A DNA stretch of 15,485 nt, taken from IMG/VR virus record IMGVR_UViG_2563366804_000003. One strand, written 5' to 3'. The position numbers are program-made. This document shows, one piece after another, positions 9,001 through 15,000 of this stretch. Numbering within the stretch: the first letter of the stretch is position 1; each line of letters opens with the position of its first letter. This stretch comes from a virus (taxonomy: Duplodnaviria; Heunggongvirae; Uroviricota; Caudoviricetes).

Positions 9001-12000
9001 GCGAAGCACTTCAGGCGAGAGGGCAGGATATTAGCCGAGCAAATGCGTTAACGTCAGCATATGCACCAACAGCAGCAATGCAGAATTACAATCAGTACGC
9101 TCAAATGTTAAAGGCGGATCCAGAGGGGGCGGCGGCATTTGCGGCAGCGGCTGGAATTAATACAAACGCCAAAAAATTAATGAGTGTTAGAGAAAACGAT
9201 GATGGCACTGTCACAAAATACTACACAGACGGAAGTGAAGAGCAGGGAAAACTAAACCAGCCAATATCTGGAGATGGATTTCGTCCAATAGCTTTGCCAA
9301 CAGCCCAAAAGATCATGGAAAAGTCGCCAGAAGGGGCTAAAAAAGCTGCTGGATTTGCATACAGGGTTAGGGATGCTCTTGATTCAATAGATACACTGAA
9401 AGACCAGCTTAGCCCACAGCGAGTGGCGGTCATTAATAATGCTTTGGGTAATGGGACGCTGGCTAACTTAACGCTCAGCCCAACAGAGCAGCAATACGTT
9501 GTTAATGCTAATGACGCAATAATGGCAATACTCCGTCAGGAAACAGGGGCAGCTATCGTACCTGCTGAAATGTCAAAATATTATCAAATGTATTTCCCTC
9601 AGCCTGGCGACTCCACAAAAACCATTGATACCAAGCGCCGGAAGATGGAAAACCAGTTCAATTCGCTGAAAGCTGCTTCTGGTCGAGCTTATGATGCTTT
9701 GCGGGTTATTTCAGCAGTTGACAGAGGAACTTCTTCTTCGTCGCAGACATTGCCGCAATCTGAGCAGGTATCACAGCCAGCAGCCAGCAGTAACTTTTCT
9801 TCACTATGGGGTGATTAATGGCTAAAGCATGGAAAGATGTTATCGCCTCTCCACAGTATCAGGCGTTAGCACCAGAACAAAAAGCGCAGGCTCAGGAGCA
9901 ATACTTCAATGAAGTCGTGGCCCCGCAAGCCGGAGAAAGTGTAGAGCAGGCTAAGCAGGCTTTTTATGCTGCCTATCCACTACCATCAACGAATGAAATA
10001 GACCGATCCCAATCAGCAACTCAAAATATTCAACATACATCATCTGATAATTCTCTTGCGTCAGGGTATGCAAAGTTAGCTACTCAGCAAAGAGAGGGGC
10101 TTGAGCGTTCAGCAGAACAGGGAGCCAGTCTTGGGGCTGCGATGCGGGATGCTATAACAGGCGAAAGCCGAATGACTCCAGAGATGGAGAGACTGCAAAA
10201 TGTCGCCTCTGCCCCAGAATTGAACTCACTAAGCATGGATGCCCTAAAGGCTGGATGGTCTCAACTTTTCGGCTCTGACGCGTCTCAGGAAAAGATTCTC
10301 CAGGGAATGGGGGCGACATTAAGGCAGGATGAGAAGGGGAATACTATCGTTTCTCTGCCATCAGGTGATTATGCCCTAAACAAGCCGGGTTTATCACCGC
10401 AAGACCTGACTTCGTTTCTTGCTAATGCGTTGGCGTTTACACCAGCGGGCAGGGCTGGAACGGTGCTTGGTGCCATAGGAAAATCAGCAGCTACAGATTT
10501 AGCACTACAGGGAGCCACCAGCCTTGCTGGTGGAGAAGATATTGATCCGTTACAAACGGTAATTTCTGCTGGCATTGGTGGTATTGGTAAGGGGCTGGAA
10601 AATACAGCGAGTGCGGTTTCGAGGGCTGTTCGTGGTGATATGTCGCCTGAAGCAAAGGCTGCTGTCGACTTTGCATCGGAAAGAAATCTGCCGTTAATGA
10701 CCAGTGACATGCTGAAAGATAAAACCTTTATGCAGAGTCAGGCTCAGACATTAGGCGAAAGAGTTCCTTTTTTTGGAACCGGTAAGAATCGGCTGAATCA
10801 ACAACAAGCACGAGAAAATTTAGTCAGAACATTTAGCGATGGTCTGGGTGGCATTTCTGATAAACAGCTTTATGAATCTGCGACTAAAGGGCAACAAAAA
10901 TTCATTGAGGCAGCAGGAAAGCGATATAACCGCATAATTGACGCTATGGGGGATACCCCTGTCGATCTCTCAAACACGGTAAAAGCTATCGACAATCAGA
11001 TTGCCGTGTTAAGCCGCCCGGGCAAATCTCAGGATAGAGCCGCGGTAAAAGTCTTGCAGCAATTTAAAGACGATATCACCAGCGGACCAAATGACCTGCG
11101 TCTGGCGAGGGAAAACAGAACCGATCTTCGAAAGCGATTTATGGCGTCATCTGACACTGTTGATAAAGATACGCTCCAGAAAGCCAGCGATATTATCTAC
11201 AAGGCATATACGGCGGATATGAAAAAAGCCGTAGCCAAAAATCTTGGAGCAGACGAAGCCATTAATATGGCAAGGGTTGATCGCTCATGGTCTAAATTCA
11301 ATGACATGATGGGAAGAACGCGCGTTCAAAAGGCAATAGCCAGCGGCAAGGCCACGCCTGAGGATGTAACAAAACTCGTTTTTAGCCAAAGCCCATCAGA
11401 ACGTTCTCAGCTTTACAGGCTTCTGGATGACAATGGTAGGCAAAACGCACGAGCAGCCATAGTTCAGAATGCTGTAGATAAGGCGACTGATCCGTCTGGA
11501 AATATCAGTGTTGAGAAGTTTATTAATGCGTTACACCGGAACAGGAAGCAATCAGCAACTTTCTTTAAAGGCGTACATGGAAAGGAACTGGACGGCGTTA
11601 TTAAATACCTCAACGATACAAGACACGCGGCAAAAGCGAACGTTCAAAACTTAAATGGTCAGCAGCTTTATGGATTGTTAGTTGGTGGTGGCATCATAAA
11701 CGCAGCAGTATTAGCGGGGATGCTAAAAACAGCTGCGTTTGTTGTTCCTGCTGCTGGTGCCGTAGGCGGAGCAGCGAAGGCATACGAAAGCCCTGTTATA
11801 CGAAATGCCTTGTTACGTCTGGCAAATACACCAAAAGGTAGCACAGCATATGACAGAGCGATCAGTACGGTCACACAATCGCTCACCAGAGTCGCACAGG
11901 CATCACAAAAAGAAGCTCAATAACTGGTTAGCCACGGATGGCTAATTTTTGTTCTTTGCTCTCATCCATAGGTAAAGAAGGGAAAGAACAAGACAAAAAA

Positions 12001-15000
12001 CAGAGAATAGATAACCTACCTCATATGGTGCGCCAAAAAAATTAGCTATTGATACGGGCAAAAAAGCTGAAGCGATCAAAATTGAAAGGCAAAAAATAAG
12101 CCCAGTAATATAGTTTATTAAATTCTTAAATGAGAAACGTTTTGCTTGATTTACGGTCTTAACGAACGATCGCTTAACGACGGATAAAAGCAAATAGATG
12201 GCGACAGTTGCTAATGCCCCTTTCCACCAGTCTGGATATAGTTTTGCGACAATCAGACCAAGGAAAACCATGATGACAGCCTGAGCATTCACACCAACCC
12301 TCCCTTTAGCTTTGTTTAGAATGGCAATCATCATATATCCAAGACATGGCATTTGGTACATAGCTTGGGTCAGGATTTCAAATCCGATCCCCGTTGATGG
12401 GGCCGTTACAGTACGCGCATATCCGCTTTATGTGAAACAGGAAGATTTTTCTGATATCACTGCCACAGCAAAACACCAATTTCGTGACCAGTACGCGCGC
12501 GAGGGGTATCAGTTGCAAAATTTTTTGCAACTGCGTCCGACCAGTACGCACACGATGGCGGGGAGCACCATAAAACTGTTCTCTACATAAGACAGAGTGG
12601 TGGTGATGTGTTGATTATCGGCGTATATGCGCACAGGACGCGCTATGACGATGTTTTATGCGGGTACACCAATCACATGTATCTGGTGTGATAAATCGCG
12701 TTACATGACCTCTCATGTTGTGCTGGTGGTTATCACGACTTTCTGAATCTGGCCTTTGCCTGATATTTTGCGACAAGTACGCGCGCGTAGCATCGAAATT
12801 ATCGGATGGCGTATGCTGCTGGCAATATGAAGACCGATAGTATTAACCGAAAAGCGAAAGAGCTTCTCGATAACGGCAAGATCGCGGCAAGGGTTGCTGA
12901 ATTTGAACAGATGTAAGGAATGGAACCAGAGAGGCGCTGGCGGCGAAAAAACGCCACTACCAGCGGATAAATGTGCCAATCTTTTAGTTGGAAAAACAGC
13001 ATAGAAGGCTACCATGATATGTAAAGATTGCTCAAAAAGTTATTATCAACGTCTAATTTCATTAAAAATGCTCCTTATTGCTGTTAAAAATCAAAGAAAT
13101 CATTTAAAAACCGTTCAACACCCCCCATCTGTCTTCAAAAAGATTTGTGTTGGTTAGTGACTAGTTACCTTTTATATGTAAATATATCCACAAGGGAAGT
13201 GGTGAAAATTTCGACTATTTAACCATAATCAAAGGAGGTGAACATGTCGAATACATCTGCACATGCCCTCTTGAAAGATATCTGGGGCGATAGGAAATTC
13301 CCGGTTGATCCAGTATGGATTGCCAATGAGTTAGGGTTGGATGTTGTTGAAACCACGCTTGATGATGATGTTTCAGGCGCATTGCTGAAAGAGCCAGAAC
13401 AAGATCCAGTAATCATACTCAATCGTAATGATAGTAACGTGCGCAAACGATTTACGTGTGCGCATGAGTTAGGGCATTACGTCAAACGAACTGAGAACGG
13501 TCAGCCACTTGAATATGAGTTTGTTGATTACCGCGGAAAACTGGCAAGCCAAGGTGTAGACAGCGAAGAAATATTCGCCAATAACTTTGCAGCATGTCTT
13601 CTCATGCCAGAAAAAGAGGTTCGACGCCTCAACAATGCAGGATATGCACCAGTAATGATGGCTTCCTATTTTGGTGTATCCGATGATGCTATACGTTATC
13701 GCCTAAAGAATTTAGGGCTTCGATGAGTAATGACGTCTAGATCTTACGCTATATCTGAAAAACTAAAGCAAGCGGCAAGACAAGCCAGAGGTGAACCAGC
13801 CTCTGGCTCATCACCATCAGCAAAAACCCTCACACATCTAAATGATGAGGATCCAGCCAAAGCCCATCAGCGTGCAAAAACAAAAGATTTAAAAACAGAC
13901 ACAAAACTGAAAAAAATGTTTGCTCGGTGGTTTATCGGCATTCTGATAGGCCAGCTATTAGTTATGAATGGGATTTTTGTCCTTATTGGAGCAAAACTGC
14001 TCCATTTTAGTGATTTCGTTATAAACCTATTTATGGGGGGAACCCTCGCTGAAGTCTTTGGCATTGTTTTAGTGATGGCACGCTACCTGTTCTCCAAGCA
14101 CGTCTAAAAATCAAAATATAGGGCTACATTCTTAGAGCCACTGATAACTTTTCAGCATTGCTTCCCTGACGCTTCCACGCGCTGTAAATGTCTTTATCCC
14201 ATGCTTTACCAGCTTTTGTTTGATAGCCTGCTTCATTGAGCCGTTCCGCTATCACACGCCCATTATCAAATCCCTGTCGGATGGTATCGGCAATGATCTT
14301 TATAACTGCCGTTTCGTTATATGGCTTTGGTGGGATGTTCGGCTTTCCGGCAATAAGCGACGCAGCGGCTTTTTCCATGCGCTCCACCAGCCCAAGCATT
14401 CGTGAATCAATAGACTTTTCCGGCTGTCCCAGCTTCATGCGAATCGCATCAACAAGCCAGGAGGTTTTATCCCCTCCAGAAGCGAGAACAGACCGATTAA
14501 ACTCATCCTGCAATTCAGATGGGATGCGGAACGCGACCAGATTAGATTTGCTCATTGCAAAGACCATATCAGTGAGTAATATCCATACAGTATACCACTG
14601 TATAACACTGTTATACGCTCAAATATCAGCCAGAAAATAACGGGCCAATCACAAAGCTATCGCTGTGTTGTTGGTTCAGAGCTGGGCTGTGTTGGTTCAA
14701 AATGAGTTGATGTTGGTTCAATATTTCAGAAAAAACACAATAAAAACAACGATCTTTACAAATTGAACCAACTGAACCAACTGAACCAACTGAACCAACA
14801 CCTTTTTGCTTATCTATATAATCTGAGAGGCAGAAATGATAAGGGACAGGAAAGCTGAAGAGCTGGAGTCAAAAGGGCTATACCGGAGAGCTGCCGCACG
14901 ATGGGCAGAAGTCATGATGCTGGCAGATGGCGATAAAGAACGTGAACATGCAGCAAACAGACGCTCTGAATGTATCCGTAAGGCGGCACGCCCACCAGCA

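Follow-up and report, generated by a model that had tools for sequence, protein, structure and literature searches.

The 15,485-nucleotide virus record IMGVR_UViG_2563366804_000003 (Caudoviricetes), analysed here at its full length and referred to below as the window, contains a two-gene cassette composed of a gene for an ImmA/IrrE-type zinc metallopeptidase and a gene for a 125-aa protein with two predicted transmembrane (TM) helices, called here the two-helix membrane (2TM) protein. The window is 100% identical to a chromosomal island of E. coli MB06101, located between yicC and dinD. Towards the right end of this island, a block of homologues of P22 ejection-protein (E-protein) genes is followed by a small membrane-protein gene in the position of sieA, a spacer, the cassette and two genes of the island backbone (Table 1). 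The peptidase/2TM pair is an essentially obligate, co-inherited and horizontally mobile unit, and it is allelic to a gene for the abortive-infection protein AbiD, which fills the same slot of a sister island.

The peptidase and its membrane partner

The upstream gene of the pair was described in a first-pass annotation as encoding an ImmA/IrrE-family metallopeptidase preceded by a strong Shine-Dalgarno (SD) sequence, and both parts of this description are confirmed. The protein matches the PF06114 profile over positions 2–123 of 123 with a score of 71.1 bits (cut-off 22; E = 9.6e-20), and its HELGH motif (residues 76–80) and downstream EIFANNFAACLLMP segment (residues 111–124; numbering of a 162-aa form) align with the motifs of CapP (PDB 7T5T). 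The HExxH and ExxAN.FA..LLMP motifs are kept in 26 of 27 orthologues and, judging from profile and motifs, the protein is a genuine ImmA/IrrE-type HExxH enzyme of the M78 family (COG2856). The SD sequence, AAAGGAGG, occupies positions 13231–13238, 5 nt before the ATG at 13244, which is most likely the start codon (160 aa, as in RefSeq) rather than the GTG at 13238 (162 aa). CapP is the closest match in profile and structure (PADLOC E = 5e-25, over profile positions 5–150 of 242; PDB 7T5T), and 13 RmrA models of PADLOC are also matched (best E = 9e-14), in their peptidase segment only (e.g. positions 165–292 of 380). The 160-aa protein has neither a helix-turn-helix (HTH) domain nor a C-terminal sensor domain. 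At its C-terminus it keeps the two helices (FGVS..A...RL..LG) that are characteristic of the family. In one orthologue, from a metagenome-assembled genome (MAG) of a Methylococcaceae species (locus L040, 3618–4121), the two zinc-binding histidines are replaced (CARELGRY) and the ExxAN.FA motif is degenerate, yet the open reading frame (ORF) and the 2TM partner are intact; it may be a pseudo-peptidase that still binds this partner.

The 125-aa partner had been described as a protein with a charged N-terminal domain and two TM helices, a view upheld by hydropathy (charged N-terminal half; hydrophobic helices at about residues 66–91 and 96–118) and by an AF2 model built from a 34-sequence alignment, which has a helix at 4–19, disorder at 20–42 and long helices at 43–87 and 95–122, with a pLDDT of about 80 over the hydrophobic parts. 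The N-terminal helix is amphipathic, the disordered linker is charged, and a conserved juxtamembrane motif (D..TDT.LKK) is present. The K/R-rich flanks predict an N-in/C-in hairpin topology. The alignment shows the TM helices to be far more conserved than the tail, with invariant polar residues (Q75, T105 and E108) and a near-invariant N80; the tail is variable and of low complexity, ranging from about 20 to 150 residues among relatives. The only family model matched is phrog_5346 (function not known; E = 7e-23), and no match was found in Pfam, PADLOC (E up to 0.1) or NCBIfam. Neither in this protein nor in 10 relatives, including forms of 204–236 aa in which the longer tails are disordered or of low complexity, is an HTH, ribbon-helix-helix (RHH) or anti-sigma domain detectable; with no HTH in any length variant, the partner is not a conventional HTH repressor, which would have undermined the initial proposal. 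Clustered at 50% identity, the family, which is large and so far unnamed, yields 1452 representatives with an E-value limit of 1e-3 and 328 with a limit of 1e-10. The accessions WP_000072645, WP_000204054 and WP_000560496 were not found in the literature searched or in the NetFlax supplements. Two independent internal deletions, one in a Methylococcaceae MAG (L038, 2492–2884) and the other in an E. coli metagenome contig (P0021), join the N-terminus of the peptidase to the TM hairpin. P0021 was considered as a natural fusion of the peptidase and TM domains and proved to be an internal deletion like L038; neither is an informative fusion.

Conserved co-occurrence, proposed in the first-pass annotation as a check on the pairing, is found across several phyla. 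A gene for an M78 protein of 160–170 aa lies directly upstream, on the same strand, of the 2TM homologues of Methylobacter, Plesiomonas and a JGI metagenome contig (3/3). In a forward scan covering one genome per species (Proteobacteria, Nitrospirota, Desulfobacterota, Balneola and a Bacillota MAG), an M78 gene was present directly upstream of the 2TM gene in 30 of 31 species-level loci, with peptidase identities of 45–62%, the sole exception being the deletion in L038. Conversely, all five loci chosen by their peptidase (51–79% identity; two are near-duplicates) have a 2TM-family ORF directly downstream. The peptidase always comes first, and in 26 of 27 loci its stop codon either overlaps the start codon of the partner (ATGA or TAATG) or precedes it by no more than 15 nt. 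The identity matrices of the two proteins are correlated (Mantel r 0.67, a value reached by none of 2000 permutations). The genes that flank the pair are unrelated between loci (examples are genes for thiamine synthesis, a tRNA synthetase and LysR regulators), and neither a conserved third gene nor a conserved HTH neighbour was found across 27 loci. The pair is also present on mobile elements, such as a Salmonella prophage, in which it lies in an accessory region near hok and lom, and a Plesiomonas AlpA/DUF927 island (L004), in which a gene for a 628-aa PIN_8 protein (955–2841) lies just upstream. A coupled bicistronic pair, a patchy phylogeny and variable neighbourhoods are the generic attributes of type II-like toxin-antitoxin systems, and this pair has all three.

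Table 1. Coordinates of the features discussed, in positions of the window (a dot indicates a feature with no strand)
Feature	Coordinates	Strand	Remarks
gp14-like gene	7265–7726		P22-type E-protein block
gp7 gene	7720–8397		P22-type E-protein block; Pfam P22_gp7
gp20 gene	8397–9818		P22-type E-protein block
gp16-like ejection (injection) protein gene	9818–11923	+	Pfam Inj_translocase; PHROG 770 DNA transfer protein, E 2e-163; RefSeq injection protein
Terminator-like hairpin	11926–11947	.	GGTTAGCCACGGATGGCTAATT then T run; between the convergent gp16-like and sie-position genes
Small polytopic inner-membrane protein (predicted), sieA position	11942–12292	-	Four hydrophobic segments; allele A of variable locus
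Backbone spacer and leader of sie-position gene	12362–12797	.	Conserved; copies of motif GACCAGTACGCGCGCG
Small-terminase (Terminase_2-type) 5'-end remnant, HTH region	12799–12916	+	blastn to phage terminase small subunit genes
Variable cargo slot	12858–14132	.	Left breakpoint 12796–12978 according to comparator, right breakpoint 14133–14145 (pairwise blastn)
Stand-alone ImmA/IrrE (M78) zinc metallopeptidase, 160 aa	13244–13726	+	HELGH at nt 13463–13477, then EIFANNFAACLLMP
125-aa 2TM protein	13730–14107	+	Starts 4 nt after peptidase stop
147-aa backbone ORF	14124–14567	-	Convergent with cassette; homologues of 444 nt border the slot in L011, L012 and L047
PerC-family regulator	14836–15123	+	Pfam PerC, E 3e-33; RefSeq; PICI backbone marker, with a PerC gene also in EcCIMP1

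The host island and its cargo slot

The setting is not the P22-like phage assumed at first. The island begins with genes for a tyrosine integrase, a 321-aa unknown protein, a 67-aa AlpA-type HTH protein and a 143-aa unknown protein, continues with AntA/AntB, DUF4222, a TOPRIM-DUF927 primase and homologues of P22 gp14, gp7, gp20 and gp16 (Pfam, PHROG), and ends with the peptidase-pair region, a 147-aa ORF and a PerC regulator; its RefSeq annotation includes no capsid, portal, terminase, tail or lysis genes. Positions 2629–8557 are 98% identical at the nucleotide level to EcCIMP1 (pairwise blastn), a phage-inducible chromosomal island (PICI) for which induction and packaging by the P22-like phage Kapi1 have been demonstrated experimentally (Pick et al., 2025, PMC11773190). 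The ejection-like operon thus belongs to a satellite, given the lack of virion genes and the identity to EcCIMP1. The backbone of EcCIMP1-like PICIs (int, AlpA, primase and PerC genes in about 15–20 kb, with no structural or lysis genes) is present in full, and the element in the window is a further, new member of this group, a PICI carrying P22-type ejection genes. It shares with EcCIMP1 the genes for the integrase, AlpA, AntA/B, DUF4222, the TOPRIM-DUF927 primase, the gp14, gp7, gp20 and gp16 homologues and PerC, but EcCIMP1 is integrated at tRNA-Thr near proA rather than at yicC-dinD, carries another gp16 allele, has a 232-aa gene where the window has its small membrane gene, and has an AlpA-like HTH gene in the cargo slot occupied here by the peptidase/2TM pair. 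It is for EcCIMP1 itself that excision, packaging and transfer dependent on a helper phage have been shown. EcCIMP1 confers superinfection immunity through an uncharacterised mechanism and engages in crosstalk with its helper (PMC11773190); its ejection-gene homologues are labelled in the same paper only as "DNA transfer" or possible morphogenesis genes.

The cassette was found in 69 of 5426 complete E. coli genomes, always as a single chromosomal copy and with at least 99% identity between copies. Every E. coli context inspected corresponds to the same slot of PICIs located beside dinD, on at least two different backbones. On the left, this slot is bounded within or just past a terminase remnant; on the right, its boundary coincides with the 3' end of the backbone ORF of 147 aa. 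Its content in other islands is AbiD (L012; PADLOC E 3e-57; Pfam Abi_2), an AlpA-like HTH gene (L013 and EcCIMP1), two unknown genes (L014) or a 66-aa ORF (L011). The first 435–617 bp of the gap that separates the small membrane-protein ORF from the peptidase gene are kept in 545 E. coli genomes whatever the cargo, whereas the whole gap is present in only 68, a pattern that marks a hotspot for cargo or defence genes; comparable hotspots are described for P4 and P2 (PMC9122126). Further candidate defence cargo is found in the same region of related satellite-like islands: an Edwardsiella island (L009, 5970–7276 and 2663–3643) has both AbiD and a pair matching the PADLOC candidate system PDC-M24, and the Plesiomonas island L004 has its PIN_8 gene. 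The abortive-infection or exclusion role initially proposed for the peptidase and membrane protein fits a slot that holds AbiD in a sister island, and is plausible.

The other features of the island are context for the cassette. The gp16-like gene is the last of the E-protein block and lies outside the cassette. Homologues of P22 ejection genes are carried by a series of satellites (window 7265–11923; L015, L011–L014 and L047), with gp14, gp7, gp20 and gp16 on some backbones and only gp20 and gp16 on others, and the gp16 and gp20 alleles differ among islands; evasion of SieA-type exclusion and an altered injection specificity are possibilities for the role of these satellite-encoded proteins. 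The 147-aa ORF lies outside the cassette and is conserved in islands whose cargo differs. Its N-terminus resembles an RHH domain (…NLVAFRIPSELQDEFNR…WLVDAIRMKL), and it has weak matches to recombinase HTH domains (Pfam E 0.04–0.08); it is retained beside perC despite differing cargo, and may be a regulator of the island. Between these two genes, at 14664–14802, there is an iteron block in which three copies of GTTGGTTCA face four copies of TGAACCAAC, and a related block, inverted, is found at 6521–6646, directly downstream of the primase gene (blastn 77–79% in sister islands); these blocks are probably replication-origin or operator iterons. At the island's other end, between the integrase gene and alpA, the 321-aa ORF (1356–2321) has a low GC content (0.35–0.40), no Pfam or PHROG match and a weak match to the PADLOC candidate PDC-S31 (E 0.002), and may be a second accessory gene.

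The composition does turn towards AT after the E-protein block, as the first-pass annotation had it, but the drop is modest (GC 0.38–0.44 in the accessory region versus about 0.45–0.55 elsewhere). An Rfam E-value scan of 11900–15485 for non-coding RNAs gave only sub-threshold palindrome matches, spurious miRNA hits, at the iteron block. Sequenced phages contain no near-identical DNA for 11900–15485, and neither the 125-aa protein nor the 139-aa product of the small membrane-protein ORF has a tblastn match in 50,697 phage records; the region is therefore not a known phage module.

The sieA position and the spacer

The gene that follows the gp16-like gene had been predicted to encode a 139-aa membrane protein on the minus strand. 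A hydrophobic ORF of this length is indeed present (11942–12361) and converges on the gp16-like gene, which ends at 11923. However, the gene itself probably starts at the GTG at 12292, which gives a protein of 116 aa with four hydrophobic segments: an SD sequence, AAGGGAGG, lies 6 nt upstream of this codon, several homologues (start MNAQ) have been called from it, and a sister-island allele with the same leader and GTG encodes an unrelated ORF opening with a textbook Sec signal peptide, MNQLKRLVVSGLLFASFGANA. The locus is variable (window 11942–12310; L011 6578–6970; L012 6536–6973), with a conserved leader, SD sequence and GTG start. At least three unrelated coding bodies share this leader and start: the protein with four predicted TM segments (allele A), another membrane protein (allele B) and a secreted protein (allele C). 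Such a variable envelope-protein locus is consistent with a diversifying exclusion function linked to the gp16 and gp20 of the satellite.

The proposal that this gene occupies the sieA position is well founded. Homologues of the 116-aa protein were found in Enterobacterales only, always convergent with and directly after a gp16 homologue, including in Edwardsiella in a satellite-like island and in E. coli in islands without the peptidase pair. A Yersinia enterocolitica prophage (L008) with a complete P22-like late operon has gp16 followed by this gene, a 108-aa ORF and tailspike, and thus encodes a multi-pass protein, with a membrane location predicted from hydropathy, between homologues of gene 16 and gene 9. 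The SieA protein of P22 blocks DNA injection, with escape mutations mapping to gp16 and gp20 (Leavitt et al., 2024, PMC10883804), and a SieA homologue is present in only 22 of 66 P22-like phages (PMC10883804). The 116-aa protein resembles SieA in its convergent orientation directly after gene 16 and, in the true P22-like prophage, ahead of the tailspike gene, in being a small, multi-pass, predicted inner-membrane protein, and in its linkage to gp16 and gp20, the genetic targets of SieA. It differs in length (SieA has 162–164 aa), in lacking sequence or profile similarity and the FxRYPxEAxxFNK motif, and in being encoded on a satellite by one of at least three unrelated alleles, one of them secreted. 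Homology to SieA was considered and rejected (BLASTP E 0.95; hhalign probability 0.6%; motif absent). From this comparison, the 116-aa gene appears to be an analogue of sieA by position without homology to it; it falls outside the sieA family and is a unit separate from the cassette. EcCIMP1, which confers superinfection immunity, has a different gene at the sie position.

The gap between the membrane ORF and the peptidase gene was initially described as about 880 bp of repeat-rich non-coding DNA. It measures 876 bp and contains three copies of a 20-nt repeat, GACCAGTACGCGCGCG (12486–12505, 12539–12558 and 12772–12791; a fourth copy is at 15449–15468), but this is the only repeated motif there, and the gap also holds a small-terminase remnant. 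The repeat is a GC-rich motif, (G)ACCAGTACGCGCGCG, and two 29-nt versions of it, at 12473 and 15436 (83% identical, 2.9 kb apart), bracket the cargo slot and the PerC region; protein-binding, packaging or recombination sites are possible roles. Positions 12799–12900 match the 5' ends of phage terminase small subunit genes (blastn; best match 78.9% over 90 nt, E 1e-11), and a 36-codon ORF within the remnant (12806–12916) reads MAYAAGNMKTDSINRKAKELLDNGKIAARVAEFEQM. The remnant is common to the left edge of the slot in sister islands, EcCIMP1 included, and the Edwardsiella island (L009) has an intact gene for a 166-aa Terminase_2 protein in the corresponding region (5008–5508), which suggests that the ancestral island encoded its own small terminase subunit (TerS). 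A tblastn comparison of the gap with the TerS, DUF1828, AbiD and tailspike genes of the Edwardsiella and Yersinia loci gave nothing significant; the remnant came to light solely through blastn against phages. The membrane gene, the spacer and the peptidase/2TM pair had been treated as a single accessory module; they are three independent units, since the sie-position gene is found without the pair and the pair without that gene, and in E. coli the pair is also found beside a different allele of the membrane gene.

Possible modes of action

The pairing of an ImmA-type peptidase with a membrane protein was initially considered atypical, but a zinc peptidase with a non-HTH and even membrane-active partner has a precedent in RosmerTA. 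These systems consist of a Zn-peptidase antitoxin and toxins of unknown function, and deletion of rmrA failed (Millman et al., 2022, 10.1101/2022.05.11.491447; Ernits et al., 2023, PMC10440598). The RmrT of Gordonia phage Kita (RmrT-D5), which its C-terminus localises to the membrane, both depolarises and permeabilises E. coli and confers protection against Bas54 and Bas59; among the antitoxin domains of the NetFlax network, that of ImmA is a hub (PMC10440598). The cassette resembles RosmerTA in being a two-gene operon for an ImmA-type Zn-peptidase protein and a small partner without known domains, in its occurrence on mobile elements and in defence hotspots, and in that at least one validated RosmerTA toxin is membrane-localised and depolarising. 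Unlike the bare 160-aa peptidase of the cassette, RmrA is a protein of about 360–400 aa that has an XRE HTH at its N-terminus and further regions at its C-terminus; none of the RmrT models is matched by the 2TM protein, although RmrT families are diverse, which leaves room for analogy; and the cassette is invariably peptidase first, whereas 58% of the pairs in the RosmerTA zone are toxin first (PMC10440598). The HExxH ... ExxAxxFAxxLLMP active-site architecture is shared with CapP/CapH, ImmA/ImmR and IrrE/DdrO. The peptidase is also about the size of ImmA. Unlike these systems, the cassette has no HTH ORF in 12858–14132 and no adjoining gene for a substrate repressor, its peptidase lacks the GAF-like C-terminal domain of CapP and IrrE, it does not lie beside CBASS or in an integrase-control region, and its obligate partner is a membrane hairpin. 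The cassette thus falls outside RosmerTA, because of the lack of an HTH in the peptidase and of an RmrT match, and outside CapP/CapH-type switches, because it has neither an HTH partner nor a sensor domain; by analogy, it is plausibly a variant of protease-containing toxin-antitoxin or abortive-infection systems.

From these comparisons, and beyond what gene anatomy, conservation and context show, we infer toxicity of the 2TM protein, a direction of control, a trigger and an anti-phage phenotype, and we see about an even chance that 13244–14107 is a self-contained mobile toxin-antitoxin or abortive-infection cassette with a 2TM effector under peptidase control. The effector would be the 125-aa protein, inserted in the inner membrane as a helical hairpin of N-in/C-in topology and probably acting as an oligomer that permeabilises or depolarises the membrane. 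The co-translated cytoplasmic peptidase would control it via the exposed cytoplasmic N-terminal tail, most likely keeping it inactive by binding and/or trimming the tail, in the manner of RmrA with the RosmerTA toxins. Disturbance of this control by an infecting phage would then allow the membrane effector to abort the infection. A neutralising role for the peptidase is favoured because of the RosmerTA precedent, the antitoxin-first, translationally coupled gene order and the pair of L040, which is intact despite the loss of the zinc ligands and hints that binding without catalysis can suffice. Several points weigh against this scheme. In L038 and P0021 the TM hairpin is retained although no functional peptidase is left, which argues that the hairpin alone is not constitutively lethal. 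The peptidase has neither the HTH typical of RmrA nor an obvious sensor domain, no PADLOC model exists for the 2TM protein, and neither PADLOC nor DefenseFinder reports a system in the related EcCIMP1. The first-pass annotation had suggested looking for the pair within defence islands, and enrichment is weak: most neighbourhoods outside E. coli are housekeeping, and only about 10 of 91 flanking genes match defence models, some of them generic, with sporadic matches to mads, DRT and Mza. Finally, the sequence by itself is compatible with the peptidase being either an inhibitor or an activator.

In the main rival explanation, which we consider unlikely, the peptidase is a sensor and activator that, switched on like ImmA, IrrE and CapP by an infection or DNA-damage cue, cleaves an inhibitory N-terminal tail and thereby frees a pore. 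Protease-activated bacterial gasdermins follow an analogous logic. The best match of the peptidase, CapP, is a signal-activated protease, and this explanation would also account for the conservation of the catalytic residues in 26 of 27 orthologues and for the long, variable, disordered tail between the conserved N-terminal helix and the TM hairpin, which suits a cleavable inhibitor. The 160-aa enzyme, however, lacks the C-terminal GAF-like sensor of CapP and IrrE, its CapP match stopping at profile position 150 of 242; the catalytically dead L040 still keeps the pair; and the antitoxin role falls to the peptidase protein in RosmerTA, the closest system that has been tested. The deletion fusions cut both ways: that these TM-only forms seem tolerated indicates that the hairpin is no simple constitutive toxin, but the tail-less L038 and P0021 should be toxic if removal of the tail were activating.

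Two further explanations assign the pair a regulatory role. The peptidase could act as an anti-repressor, cleaving an XRE-type repressor encoded elsewhere (the CI of a helper prophage or a PICI regulator) as part of an induction switch, with the 2TM protein anchoring or sequestering it or relaying an envelope signal. Canonical ImmA, IrrE and CapP do cleave HTH repressors, the C-terminal FGVS..A...RL..LG helix pair is kept, and the PICI life cycle depends on helper induction, with crosstalk between EcCIMP1 and its helper. This trans-acting role is nevertheless improbable, because the pair is autonomous and is optional cargo: in Methylobacter, Pseudoalteromonas, Microbulbifer and others it is an isolated cassette surrounded by housekeeping genes and without a conserved HTH neighbour, and in E. 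coli it is swappable with AbiD and lies outside the conserved regulatory backbone. In addition, conservation is strongest inside the TM helices and includes polar and charged residues, which is unusual for an anchor. The other explanation, also put forward in the first-pass annotation, is a membrane-tethered repressor or anti-sigma substrate, whose N-terminal domain would bind DNA or a sigma factor and be freed by the peptidase. Regulated proteolysis of membrane-tethered regulators is a known principle, and the N-terminus of the 2TM protein is predicted to be cytoplasmic, is charged and has a short conserved helix (4–19). This reading is disfavoured and we consider it very improbable indeed: it is left unsupported by the lack of any DNA-binding domain, no HTH, RHH or anti-sigma domain being detectable in the 2TM protein or its 10 relatives, in which the extra length is of low complexity; AF2 places a single 16-residue helix ahead of the membrane region, with disorder at 20–42; and the combination of a variable tail with a conserved TM part is the reverse of what a DNA-binding domain would lead one to expect.

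Should the peptidase/2TM pair be a toxin-antitoxin or abortive-infection system, it would be a compact two-gene family (about 285 codons) distributed from Enterobacterales to Nitrospirota and missed by current defence finders, and it would provide a simple test case of an ImmA-type peptidase controlling a non-HTH, membrane-embedded partner. The cargo slot of EcCIMP1-like PICIs, bordered on the left by the terminase remnant and on the right by the 147-aa ORF and PerC, with a flanking backbone present in at least 545 complete E. coli genomes, is a place in which to mine further systems, in the way that the P4 and P2 hotspots have been mined. The variable envelope-protein gene linked to the satellite gp16 and gp20 supplies candidates for SieA-independent exclusion of P22-like phages, and leads on why the satellite carries ejection proteins of its own. 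A broader proposal, tentative and in our view rather unlikely, is that short ImmA-only peptidases and 2TM hairpins form a widespread, unnamed type of protease-gated membrane-effector immunity (at least 328 clusters), in which the soluble metallopeptidase would sense an infection cue and govern a pore-forming hairpin by way of its disordered cytoplasmic tail, and that in E. coli, together with the hypervariable envelope locus linked to the satellite-encoded ejection proteins, they would make up an injection, exclusion and abortive-infection arsenal of the satellites of P22-like phages. If true, this arsenal could explain the uncharacterised superinfection immunity of EcCIMP1-type islands.

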